A stretch of DNA of 32,000 bases from an uncultured archaeon (GTDB lineage Archaea > Asgardarchaeota > Jordiarchaeia > Jordiarchaeales > Jordiarchaeaceae), in contig CAZECW010000020.1 of NCBI GenBank assembly GCA_964510585.1, positions 60,001 to 92,000 on the forward strand, in the 5' to 3' direction. A program made the translations under genes and the position numbers. Shown one piece after another: positions 6,428 to 16,417 of the stretch. Position 1 is the first letter of the stretch. The number at the start of each line of letters is the position of its first letter. The notes under the pieces are model-generated. The model made no database searches, was not told where the DNA came from, and saw nothing but the letters and a program-made list of their open reading frames with translations.

Positions 6428-6943
6428 TTAGGTACTGTTCTTAAAGTAATGATTTGTAACGACTTTGATCATCTCTGAAAAGAGCTTCTCTAATCCCTCA
6501 CCGCTCTTGGCATTAACAGTAATCACATTACTGTCCGGCACATTAAAAACGTTCTTAACTTCGTTTAAAAATAAAGAAGCCACCGAATTTTTCTCGTTTA
6601 CGGCAATTACCATTGGAACCTCCTTACTCCCAACTATTTCCTCATAAATTGTGCGCGCCTTTGAAAGGGAGTCTGGATCCTCATTATTCACTACTAGGAG
6701 CAGAGCATTCAATCCCTTAGACAAAGATTTTCTAACCACCGAAAATTGATCCGCCCCCGGAGTTCCAAAGAAATGAAAACGCGAGCCATCCACATCAAAA
6801 TATGTATAATCCATACAAACGGTAGAACCCGCAGCATCAATATGAATAAACCCTTTTCCACTAAACTTTTCCGCCAACCTTGAAACAATTTCCGTTTTGC
6901 CGCTAGCCCGCGGTCCCGCCACCACAACCTTAAACTGCTGCAT
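6428..6943 (-). CDS. Small GTP-binding protein, MglA/MJ1339-like family
   Basis: G1 GPRASGKT, MDY before the G3 strand, G3 FFGTPG, G4 region VNEKN, G5 region NAKSGEGL; 171 aa. Confidence 0.85.
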   Translation of the reverse strand: MQQFKVVVAGPRASGKTEIVSRLAEKFSGKGFIHIDAAGSTVCMDYTYFDVDGSRFHFFGTPGADQFSVVRKSLSKGLNALLLVVNNEDPDSLSKARTIYEEIVGSKEVPMVIAVNEKNSVASLFLNEVKNVFNVPDSNVITVNAKSGEGLEKLFSEMIKVVTNHYFKNST

Positions 6944-7202
6944 GAGAAACCCTCAAAGACCCTAAAACATTATAAGTTTATAATATTACACCAATAAATA
7001 ACTTTCGCCGCCCAAAAACCCCAATCCGCCGCCACAAAAAAACATATTAACAATAATCATTTAAGTATTAAAAAATTAAAGCAAAAGTCACTAAAAATTA
7101 TTAATTTCTAAAAAATTCTGGGAATTATCCCTAAAAATCTTAATACTTATGAATGATTTTAAAGCCTACCTTTTTTAGCAGAAATCAGAGATTGGATAAG
7201 CA

Positions 7203-7218
7203 ACCCCCGGCGGGGGGT
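7203..7218 (-). other. Short GC hairpin directly 3' of the SECIS-like element (possible terminator or stabilising stem)
   Basis: Minus strand A-CCCCC-CGCC-GGGGG-T at the end of the hdrA-mvh operon, before an AT-rich intergenic region. Confidence 0.4.
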
Positions 7219-7222
7219 GTCC

Positions 7223-7257
7223 CCGATGTCTTCCCTCTTCGGGGTTTCAGACACCGG
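7223..7257 (-). promoter_or_regulatory. SECIS-like element (selenocysteine insertion sequence) in the 3' UTR of the vhuU-like gene
   Basis: Minus strand CCGGUGUCU-GAAA-CCC-CGAAGA-GGG-A-AGACAUCGG: a 9-bp lower stem (one G.U), a purine internal loop and a 3-bp C-G upper stem. It matches the archaeal stem-GAA-CCC-loop-GGG-A-stem SECIS pattern and lies ~85 nt downstream of an in-frame UGA at the Sec position. Confidence 0.85.
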
Positions 7258-7258
7258 A

Positions 7259-7408
7259 TCAGCCGGAGCCAATCACAATCTCTTTGCTCGCAATCTCCTT
7301 ACCCTCACTGTCAAGGATAACAAGATGCGCCGAACAGCTAAGTCAGCAGTCATATGACCGCATAACCATCTCCAAGAGATTAAGAATCTTTGGGTCGATT
7401 TCTGGCAT
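7259..7408 (-). CDS. vhuU: VhuU-type selenoprotein: separate C-terminal peptide of the [NiFeSe] hydrogenase large subunit (49 aa, Sec at codon 22; absent from ORF track)
   Basis: Translation MPEIDPKILNLLEMVMRSYDC-U-LSCSAHLVILDSEGKEIASKEIVIGSG*. In-frame TGA at 7345-7343 falls at the first ligand of the L2 motif (DPxxxCxxH). It has its own RBS (GGAGGA, 7423-7418) and a different frame from mvhA. Confidence 0.92.
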
Positions 7409-15130: not shown

Positions 15131-16417
15131 TCAACCAAAGTACGGGCCAGCCCAGACCCAAGTATTCCATGGAATCCATGAATTCTTTATGCCCTCAGCA
15201 AGAATCATAGCTTGAATACCACTAAGTATTAAGGCGTTAACGCCAATGCCCGTAAAGATGATGCCTGTAACGTAGGAATTGGGAAGCCACTCATGAATTG
15301 AGTAATCGAACCAAACCAGGTATTGTGTAACCCACGAGGTGAGGTACCCAAGGATAGTCCAAGGATAAATATAATGAACGAAAGTATGTGTTCTAATTCC
15401 CCAGTCATTTACCGAAGCCCGATCGTAAGCCCTACTTATCTCCCATACGGCATAACCTACAGCAGGACCTACTAAAGCACCCACAGCTGCAATAGCTGGT
15501 GCGCTAATTCCTACGGTTGCCAGAATAAGTGCTATGAAACCAGTTACAGTTGTTCCAGCTCCTATTCCAATATTAAGCACACACCTTTCCTTAAAGTTCA
15601 AAGCCTCCAAGACAGGTTTATCTGTTCCTGGAACCATAAAAGAGTTTCTGTAGCGGATAACTAGTTGAACGTCTTCGCCGTAGTATAGTGGGTACCCGAA
15701 GGGCCACCAGCCTATCCAGATCCACAGTGGAAGGATGCTTTTGTAGACGTCTGGATCCATGATCAGTATCCCCTCCTCGTTGTAGTAGGAGGCTTTAATT
15801 ACTTCTTGTAGGGTGCCGTTGACTTCAAGCTGGTACTGCTTACAAATTACGGTGAACTGGGTTCCATTTATGGTTAGTGACTGGTTCCACTCCCCTACAA
15901 GCCGCCCCTGCCCAATTACCAGGTCAAAATCTGGGATATCGACCATTGTTGTCATCACGTGCTCCCTTGCGAGTAGGGAATCGTACTGTTTTAGGTATTC
16001 CACTTGTTTCGGGTTTTCGTAAAGGAACTGGTTGAAAAGCGCATATAAAGATTTTGTGCTGGGAGAATCCTTTTTGTGCTGTATGCCAATTACAGCCCCA
16101 AACAATTCATTGATTTTTCCACGTTCCGCAAGCCACTCTATGAAAGCACTATTTATTTTCGTCTCCAAATCTTGCTTGGTGACTGTTCCCATCCGCATAT
16201 CGTTCCATGGGGTCTGGATGCCTTCCTGCGGCTGGAAATCAGCAGTAGCTTTAATTTGCAAAGCGGAAGCAGCTCCCCAGCCATTGCCCAGATAGGCCAG
16301 CATAGAAAAGCCATTTGAAGCTGTATAAATATTGCCTAAAGCCATTGAGTAAAGTGTTCCAAAACCCAGGGAAAAAACAAGAAAACCAATTAGAAGAACC
16401 CCGAAACCCCTACCCAT
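15131..16417 (-). CDS. Secreted/membrane protein (~428 aa) with a C-terminal Gly/Ala-rich hydrophobic hairpin, unknown function
   Basis: N-terminal hydrophobic signal, sequons NQS and NGT (x2), Trp-rich segments, and the long hydrophobic stretch IGIGAGTTVTGFIALILATVGISAPAIAAVGALVGPAVGYAVW. GAGGT RBS precedes the ATG at 16417. Confidence 0.8.
   Translation of the reverse strand: MGRGFGVLLIGFLVFSLGFGTLYSMALGNIYTASNGFSMLAYLGNGWGAASALQIKATADFQPQEGIQTPWNDMRMGTVTKQDLETKINSAFIEWLAERGKINELFGAVIGIQHKKDSPSTKSLYALFNQFLYENPKQVEYLKQYDSLLAREHVMTTMVDIPDFDLVIGQGRLVGEWNQSLTINGTQFTVICKQYQLEVNGTLQEVIKASYYNEEGILIMDPDVYKSILPLWIWIGWWPFGYPLYYGEDVQLVIRYRNSFMVPGTDKPVLEALNFKERCVLNIGIGAGTTVTGFIALILATVGISAPAIAAVGALVGPAVGYAVWEISRAYDRASVNDWGIRTHTFVHYIYPWTILGYLTSWVTQYLVWFDYSIHEWLPNSYVTGIIFTGIGVNALILSGIQAMILAEGIKNSWIPWNTWVWAGPYFG

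Follow-up and report, generated by a model that had tools for sequence, protein, structure and literature searches.

The window, by which we mean the whole stretch of 32,000 nucleotides that was analyzed (positions 60,001 to 92,000 of contig CAZECW010000020.1, assembly GCA_964510585.1), belongs to a metagenome-assembled genome (MAG) of an uncultured Asgard archaeon of the class Jordarchaeia (3.78 Mb in 217 contigs, completeness 96%, G+C content 41.7%). Its minus strand carries a hydrogenase operon consisting of hdrA (12114-10114), mvhD (10117-9680), a gene for a small hydrogenase subunit (9661-8750), a gene for a large hydrogenase subunit (8748-7435) whose stop codon precedes the C-terminal Ni-site motif, and vhuU, a gene of 49 codons which supplies the absent motif as D-C-U-L-S-C-S-A-H. 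In vhuU the in-frame UGA for selenocysteine (Sec) precedes the stop codon UGA (7261-7259) by 82 nt, and a hairpin starts 1 nt past that stop codon. A Sec insertion sequence (SECIS) in the 3' untranslated region (3' UTR) lets the Sec-specific elongation factor, together with Sec-tRNA, decode an upstream UGA. This study concerns the identity of the hairpin as a SECIS, its native fold, and its relation to the SECIS elements of methanogens, other Asgard archaea and eukaryotes.

Use of Sec in the class Jordarchaeia was reported by Sun et al. 2021 (PMC9723677), and the genome analyzed here contains SepSecS (512 bits), a selD gene with an in-frame UGA and two frhD/mvhD genes with two UGAs each. The hdrA and mvhD genes of the operon itself encode Cys where other copies have Sec. 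The D-C-U-x-x-C-x-A-H motif of VhuU is kept in relatives, and the Sec motif pattern of VhuU was present in 193 of the 400 Asgard genomes scanned. The data set of Huang et al. (PMC11227280) includes one genome of this genus, and its supplement has an entry, 'Jordarchaeia_GCA_019056875_U', with the same sequence as VhuU of one species of the genus (L007), which assigns the organism to the Jordarchaeia.

The hairpin is a 35-nt RNA corresponding to the reverse complement of window positions 7223-7257 (minus strand, 7257..7223). An earlier note, made from the sequence of the window alone, had given this RNA and drawn it in two ways, and both drawings can be reproduced on the sequence. In fold A, a 9-bp stem is topped by a GAAA/A internal loop and the CCC/GGG stem. 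In fold B, the CCGGUG/CAUCGG helix leads into a bulge of UCU, then G.A and A.G pairs (G7248.A7229 and A7247.G7230), two A.A mismatches and the CCC/GGG stem, so that the two folds differ solely in three UCU/AGA pairs. In isolation the hairpin folded as fold A at -15.5 kcal/mol (z = -2.96), a value equalled by 2 of 200 dinucleotide shuffles. For comparison within the genus, the window element, those of five other species and one metagenome variant were aligned (alignment A1, seven distinct sequences). The element was kept in all seven, with 95.7% of the helix II cells paired, while the apical loop varied in both sequence and length (4-9 nt). The DNA of the window is present in hot-spring metagenomes, and the hairpin was invariant in contigs of four such metagenomes from four studies (one possibly being the source of the window DNA); no RNA sequencing run containing the stretch was listed. 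The coordinates of the features are listed in Table 1.

Table 1. Features of the vhuU 3' end, in window positions and in RNA order
Feature	Position	Strand	Remarks
vhuU (selenoprotein; C-terminal Ni-site peptide of split [NiFeSe] hydrogenase large subunit)	7259..7408	-	Open reading frame read
Codons of vhuU	ATG 7408-7406; Sec UGA 7345-7343; stop UGA 7261-7259	-	Sequence
Helix I, 5' strand (GAUUGG), within vhuU coding sequence	7269..7274	-	Pairs with 7195-7190
5' internal loop (CUCCGGC) between helix I and core	7262..7268	-	Sequence; spacing as in Loki-type vhuU 3' ends
Core, 5' half (UGA, the vhuU stop codon)	7259..7261	-	G7260 and A7259 proposed to be sheared with A7220 and G7221
Helix II, 5' strand (UCCGGUGUCU)	7249..7258	-	Pairs with 7231-7222
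Unpaired GAAA atop helix II	7245..7248	-	Counterpart of Asgard/eukaryote unpaired adenines and of methanogen GAA
Ministem CCC (7244-7242) / GGG (7235-7233) with apical loop CGAAGA (7241-7236)	7233..7244	-	Pairs invariant in 7 genus sequences
Single unpaired A, 3' side, facing GAAA	7232	-	Same position as 'A' of methanogen GAA_A motif
Helix II, 3' strand (AGACAUCGGG)	7222..7231	-	Pairing counts and ensemble probabilities
Core, 3' half (GA)	7220..7221	-	7/7 genus sequences; Methanopyri too
Hairpin 2 (ACCCCC / CGCC / GGGGGU)	7203..7218	-	Starts 1 nt past core GA
Helix I, 3' strand (CCAAUC)	7190..7195	-	Pairs with 7274-7269

The hairpin stands within a larger frame. In the window this frame comprises the stop codon UGA, the non-canonical position U7258.G7222, nine further pairs (giving a 10-pair helix II) and G7221-A7220, and the published Asgard layout likewise runs from UGA through one non-canonical position, an 8-10-bp helix, an adenine-led loop, the return strand and one position to GA or AA (PMC4989117, PMC11227280). 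A frame of the form UGA-N-helix-loop-helix-N-(G/A)A fitted 30 of the 38 distinct 3' regions of Asgard vhuU genes, whereas 200 shuffles gave 0.18 on average and 3 at most. Among the 30 parsed SECIS elements, the core 3' half was GA in 23 and AA in 7 (the parser demanded (G/A)A), and each helix II position showed 4-6 pair types across Asgard families. The stop codon itself was the core UGA in all 19 parsed Asgard sequences ending in UGA, a double role described in Loki VhuU.1 by Mariotti et al. (PMC4989117), and where vhuU stops in UAA or UAG a separate UGA was found 9-45 nt downstream, at the helix foot (11 of 14). The first two adenines above helix II were invariant in a 35-sequence MAFFT alignment (A2) in which the genus and Methanopyri were included; the register of its 3' strand is faulty, and A2 was used solely for the invariant UGA and AA. 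RNAalifold predicted no pairs on 18 type I sequences (SECIS with a plain loop), MAFFT having shifted their 3' strands by one column. At two loci of family f28 (L103 and L105), about 20 nt past the end of vhuU, the foot of the helix has AUGC ... AA in place of AUGA ... GA, which is possibly a core variant or a misparse.

The identification of the hairpin as a SECIS in the earlier note is supported, the element lying directly after a Sec-encoding vhuU, and the conservation 3' of vhuU orthologues that it proposed to look for was found, both within the genus and, for the frame, across the Asgard vhuU 3' regions. As to the extent of the element, the hairpin itself stands, but the strand had been left unstated and the flanking stop codon UGA and 3' GA had been overlooked.

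The frame was also detected 3' of selD, both frhD genes and one hdrA in the same genome. A loose genome-wide descriptor was uninformative (21 matches versus 20 in the control) and a strict composite descriptor was substituted for it, which gave four matches in the genome, three of them directly after Sec genes, versus none in the reversed genome. Neither the ministem nor the 3' A occurs at the cell's other Sec genes, and the machinery therefore probably recognizes the frame together with the adenines; those details of the vhuU element that resemble methanogen SECIS may be dispensable in this cell. One hdrA-frhD pair (G000:C76:15267-15330 and 15796-15860) has a separate SECIS for each gene, that of hdrA lying about 12 nt past the hdrA stop codon. 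A single SECIS after vhuD has been reported to serve both genes in Lokiarchaeota.

These counts bear on the possibility that the hairpin is no recoding signal, and acts as a terminator or an mRNA-stabilizing hairpin at the 3' end of the hdrA-mvhDGA-vhuU operon. Its location at the operon end, the A/T-rich spacer that follows it and the U-tracts after related elements in other Asgard families would suit such a role, but the composite motif is specific to Sec genes, UGA, AA and GA keep a fixed spacing across families with wholly different stems, and the element agrees with published descriptions of SECIS. We regard this explanation as extremely improbable.

We consider it likely that the hairpin is the SECIS of vhuU, with fold A as its native fold within a larger Asgard eukaryote-like type II element whose apical half has the methanogen form. 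The observations behind this reading are the position of the hairpin, its conservation, the covariation, and the frame common to four Sec genes of the genome. The element lies in the 3' UTR next to the end of a Sec gene, with GA (7260-7259) and GA (7221-7220) flanking 10 pairs including U.G. In the published model of Asgard type II SECIS (PMC11227280), the upper stem has 7-15 bp with at most two mismatches, the ministem 2-8 bp, the bulge 4-12 nt and the apical loop 2-6 nt, and the CCC/GGG ministem, the GAAA plus A bulge and the 6-nt loop of the window element agree with it; the conservation with covariation expected among orthologues is seen in the 30/38 frame fit and the diversity of pair types. 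With the lokiSECIS and eSECIS-like type II elements of Asgard archaea (PMC4989117, PMC11227280) the element shares the 3'-UTR position, the core UGA in the vhuU stop codon, the GA after a 9-10-bp upper stem, the unpaired adenines atop the stem, the ministem and a lower stem formed with coding sequence, and in both cases no SBP2-like L7Ae paralogue was found. It differs from them in three respects: it has C or U before the UGA where the published core has A or G, it is of type II while the vhuU (frhA) SECIS were mostly of type I in the published survey (PMC11227280), and its apical half consists of a full GAA(A)_A bulge plus three C-G pairs. The Asgard eukaryote-like SECIS frame is already known; what is new is the variant with a full methanogen-form apical half in Jordarchaeia vhuU.

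Among the loci read, the top made up of GAAA, CCC-loop-GGG and A was found only in this genus; the sister family has plain loops of 11-14 nt (type I SECIS) and family f13 has different ministems. According to Huang et al., eaSECIS-like structures of Asgard archaea are almost always without the G/C pairs, and no UGA_GA frame was found around them (PMC11227280). The Jordarchaeia vhuU element is a counter-example. The vhuU SECIS elements of Methanococcales that were fetched have a 10-13-bp stem, GAA or AAA, CCC(C), a 3-7-nt loop, GGG(G) and A, and have no UGA/GA frame. Those of Methanopyri read AUGA-N-9bp-GAA-CCC-loop-GGG-A-9bp-N-GA, and the AUGA_GA frame around the Methanopyrus SECIS was reported by Huang et al. 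(PMC11227280). Segment by segment, the window element follows the Methanopyri layout (UGA, a non-canonical position, 9 bp, GAA(A), CCC, short loop, GGG, A, 9 bp, G, GA), save one extra adenine in the GAAA. It differs further from the Methanopyri elements in that their stem is of G+C only, in that their AUGA lies 16-22 nt past a separate stop codon, and in that no clear hairpin 2 was seen there. With the SECIS of Methanococcales (PMC9622424, PMC11881835) the window element shares a 10-bp basal stem, two adenines, an opposing A, an apical C-G clamp and a 4-6-nt loop, and it differs in having the UGA/GA frame, a GAAA bulge in place of GAA or AAA, and no basal GC clamp. The likeness of fold A to the Methanococcales SECIS that the earlier note had pointed out is borne out by the fetched Methanococcales and Methanopyri elements (9-10-bp stem, GAA/A, CCC/GGG, loop of 3-6 nt), apart from the extra adenine of the internal loop.

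Could the element then be a purely methanogen-type SECIS, with a GAA(A)/A loop clamped by CCC/GGG, and its outer UGA/GA nothing but the stop codon and a chance GA? The determinants established in M. maripaludis are all present, namely two adenines, the opposing A, an apical GC clamp and a basal stem of at least 9 bp (PMC11881835); the two adenines are essential there (PMC11881835), and the three G/C pairs above the loop are invariant in the seven genus sequences. However, the outer frame occurs without GAA_A plus an S-S ministem at the remaining Sec genes of the genome, which requires the cell to read elements of the frame type, and the GA at 7221-7220 and the UGA stop codon recur in every member of the genus and across Asgard families. 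The internal loop, GAAA/A, also has one adenine more than the GAA/A or AAA/A of the fetched Methanococcales and Methanopyri elements, and the basal stem, which has the methanogen length of about 10 bp, ends under the loop in U-A, C-G and U-A where a GC clamp has been described in methanogens (PMC11881835). This alternative appears unlikely to us.

A phylogeny of VhuA was reconstructed from 49 sequences (LG+C20 PMSF, midpoint root), seven near-duplicate or truncated rows being excluded. All Asgard Sec-type VhuA formed one clade (100/99), in which the genus was sister to the type I SECIS family whose SECIS lacks the ministem (100/98), and Methanopyri plus Methanococcales formed a separate clade (99/93). 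Jordarchaeia VhuA is not sister to the methanogen clade, and therefore the likeness is not explained by a recent joint transfer of gene and SECIS; horizontal gene transfer from or to methanogens as the origin of the apical module was rejected for want of a sister relation in this tree. The Methanopyri-like layout may have arisen by convergence, with a ministem closing the loop, or may be an old state that was kept. An origin of the ministem in thermal adaptation was likewise rejected, the type I sister family sharing at least one hot-spring metagenome (Ga0190363) with this genus. The description of the element as a 'structural intermediate' in the earlier note can be kept in its architectural sense, archaeal and eukaryote-like features being united in one element, but not in the evolutionary sense, the VhuA tree giving no methanogen sisterhood. 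Judged from sequence comparison, the element would be intermediate in architecture only, and a direct evolutionary intermediate between the SECIS types finds no support in the tree.

The earlier note had also seen a eukaryote-like feature in fold B, and the corresponding hypothesis is that the element alternates between fold A and a canonical kink-turn (k-turn) within the hairpin, read by L7Ae or an L7Ae-like protein as eukaryotic SECIS elements are by SBP2. The sequence does match the simple k-turn pattern of a 3-nt bulge followed by G.A and A.G, as that pattern is defined in PMC5061560, GA is present at both sites in 6 of the 7 genus sequences, the genome encodes L7Ae, and the methanogen GAA/A loop has already been termed 'kink-turn-like' (PMC11881835). 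The natural variation in the UCU/AGA pairs within the genus bears on both folds: alignment A1 showed U-A in 6 and U-G in 1 of the seven sequences at columns 42-67, C-G in all 7 at columns 43-66, and U-A in 4, U-G in 2 and C.A in 1 at columns 44-65. Three of the four changes are thus A to G opposite U, by which Watson-Crick or wobble pairing is preserved. The fourth is a U to C in L008, giving C.A at the top pair of helix II, which weakens fold A and leaves fold B intact. Fold B can be drawn for 6 of the 7 genus sequences and fails in L005, where AGA has become AGG; fold A retains U-G there, while the adenine at position 1n required by a k-turn (A1n, acceptor of the key cross-strand hydrogen bond from L1; PMC6298567) is replaced by G. 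In a canonical k-turn the tandem G.A and A.G pairs are of the trans sugar-Hoogsteen kind, and positions 1n and 2b are adenines.

The energies also speak against fold B, at -8.5 kcal/mol (scored by Watson-Crick pairs only) versus -15.5 kcal/mol for fold A, a gap of about 7 kcal/mol, and the three UCU/AGA pairs each had a probability of at least 0.92 in the ensemble of the 96-nt context. Moreover, fold B is not formable in the selD, hdrA and two frhD SECIS of the same genome, nor in the vhuU SECIS of Methanopyri, Methanococcales or other Asgard families, and by our own estimate a GA would occur at that spot by chance in about 1 of 15 stems. We think a switch to an internal k-turn highly unlikely and read the k-turn pattern, as a judgement and not as proof, as a coincidental by-product of a helix II ending in UCU/AGA; attractive as the idea of a switchable internal k-turn was, it is corrected here as unsupported. 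The eukaryote-like feature of the element is the stop codon UGA together with the GA at the foot of the stem, and not a refolded internal k-turn.

With the eukaryotic type II SECIS (RF00031) the element has in common a UGA/GA core about 10 bp below unpaired adenines and a ministem above. It differs from the eukaryotic SECIS and k-turns in its short helix II, in a 5' loop of 7-8 nt in place of a 3-nt bulge, and in the lack of SBP2: the L7Ae-fold proteins found in the genome were only the usual L7Ae and L30e, and no SBP2-like protein was detected. Searches with Rfam at gathering thresholds gave no match in the whole window, and RF00031 (SECIS_1) gave no match at E <=10 in the 171-nt region 7150-7320. 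The sole weak Rfam match in that region was SECIS_5 (RF01991), with 15.8 bits versus a gathering threshold of 50, which was treated as no membership. RF01991, which we take to be a model of bacterial elements in which the 'UGA' is the very codon for Sec, matched nothing meaningful across the genome.

Beyond the core GA, a second hairpin (hairpin 2) recurs. An equivalent was found in 27 of the 30 parsed Asgard vhuU SECIS versus 2.7 +/- 1.5 in shuffles, 0-6 nt after the core GA, usually C-rich/G-rich and in most cases with GC in the loop (often GCA or GCC). It is also present 3' of the selD, hdrA and frhD SECIS of the same genome, and an equivalent with a ..GCA.. loop follows the vhuU SECIS of Methanocaldococcus and some Methanothermococcus. 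The loci at which it was noted are L004-L020, L049, L061, L071 and L096-L112, as well as L062, L065, L067, L072-L074 and L078. No 3'-strand hairpin is mentioned in the main texts of the Asgard SECIS papers PMC4989117 and PMC11227280.

Below the core, a lower helix (helix I) can be formed with the vhuU coding sequence, and we assign it to the element with moderate confidence from the sequence comparison. Its 3' strand (CCAAUCUCU) is kept in 6 of the 7 genus sequences, and L004 has a compensatory G there, the pair changing from U-A to C-G; the same change was found in the equivalent helix of L111, which belongs to another family, and L008 has one mismatch. Over the 30 sequences, the longest lower-helix complement averaged 7.8 versus 6.0 in shuffles. 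Helix I agrees with the lower stem of Huang et al., who noted [U/C]GG_C[C/U][A/G] pairs in the lower stems of frhA (PMC11227280). Hairpin 2 and the probable lower helix would form a three-way junction with helix II. With hairpin 2 as the third helix, on the non-bulged strand, this arrangement has k-junction topology (PMC10573300), the likeness in geometry being taken from topology only. The recurrence of hairpin 2 and of the lower helix indicates that the published two-helix drawings of Asgard SECIS are incomplete. In a competing arrangement, GAUUGGC (in 7257-7274, minus strand) can pair over 7 bp with GCUGAUC across the stop codon, at the expense of helix I and the core.

On the reading of the element as an Asgard type II SECIS with a methanogen-form top, it would direct the insertion of Sec at the in-frame UGA of vhuU. 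The core UGA (7261-7259) and the GA (7221-7220) probably form tandem sheared G.A/A.G pairs, which are non-Watson-Crick; the lower helix (7274-7269/7195-7190), the core, helix II, GAAA, the ministem, the opposing A and hairpin 2 (7218-7203) could be assembled around the three-way junction, and SelB/EFSec with Sec-tRNA might be recruited via a putative binder of the SECIS, for which adenines 7247-7246 may be a second contact. That the nearby stop codon UGA is not itself recoded is explained by the minimal-distance rule of Mariotti et al. (PMC4989117).

Several observations weigh against this reading. The parser presupposes the pairing, the UGA and the (G/A)A, so that only the shuffle contrast and the diversity of pair types are independent evidence. 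Covariation at the genus level did not stand out, the observed score being reached by 198 of 500 shuffles with variation too small for statistics, and the C.A pair of L008 is better tolerated by fold B than by fold A. Before the core UGA the window has C and the other six sequences of the genus have U (as do population variants at 7262), so the published A or G (AUGA/GUGA) is not found in the genus. The register of helix I is ambiguous, an alternative 8-bp pairing of 7283-7276 with 7194-7187 being available, and in a 141-nt context the minimum free energy structure pairs part of the 5' arm of the hairpin with coding sequence; such capture of the SECIS 5' arm by the coding region may matter to folding once the ribosome has passed. 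Finally, a search of the 96% complete MAG with RF01852 gave no match to tRNA-Sec, despite the Sec machinery and at least five Sec genes in it. Only 5 tRNAs were listed in the genome by aragorn, and we take the missing tRNA-Sec to reflect incompleteness of the MAG or tRNAs escaping these searches, rather than true absence.

A further proposal, which we put forward tentatively and hold to be rather doubtful, is that the Jordarchaeia vhuU SECIS is a natural chimera in which all essential methanogen determinants sit about 10 bp above the Asgard/eukaryote UGA/GA core, as in Methanopyri. The occurrence of both signatures in register in Jordarchaeia and Methanopyri suggests aligning the methanogen GAA with the apical adenines of Asgard archaea and eukaryotes. 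If the proposal were true, the methanogen GAA/A 'kink-turn-like motif' and the Asgard/eukaryotic 'unpaired adenines' would be one recognition site, archaeal and eukaryotic SECIS would all follow one plan, of which each lineage kept a single half or both, and the conserved hairpin 2, with its k-junction-like three-way junction, would be an additional component of the signal that has not been described so far. The Loki SECIS failed to work in M. maripaludis (PMC11881835); on this proposal the window element, unlike it, would be expected to drive Sec insertion in Methanococcus maripaludis. The element is a ready construct for the reporter system available in M. maripaludis, and its main value is as a test of the same-site idea. 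The eukaryote-like core at the stop codon also matters for the annotation of Asgard vhuU genes and their 3' ends.

Some minor observations were made on the genes themselves. At the Ni-site motif (window 7343-7351), all Asgard vhuU genes caught with the D-C-U pattern encode D-C-U, Methanococcales D-P-U and Methanopyri D-I-U, and D-P-U was instead seen in two Promethearchaeota contigs (L061 and L071). The gene downstream of the element (6428-6943, minus strand) encodes a 171-aa P-loop protein resembling a small GTPase. The selD gene contains an in-frame insert of 30 nt between ..NDVY and AIGG.. (G000:C193:53626-53655; L033:1759-1788), which includes a TAA and a 9-10-bp hairpin and looks like a small intron or insertion.

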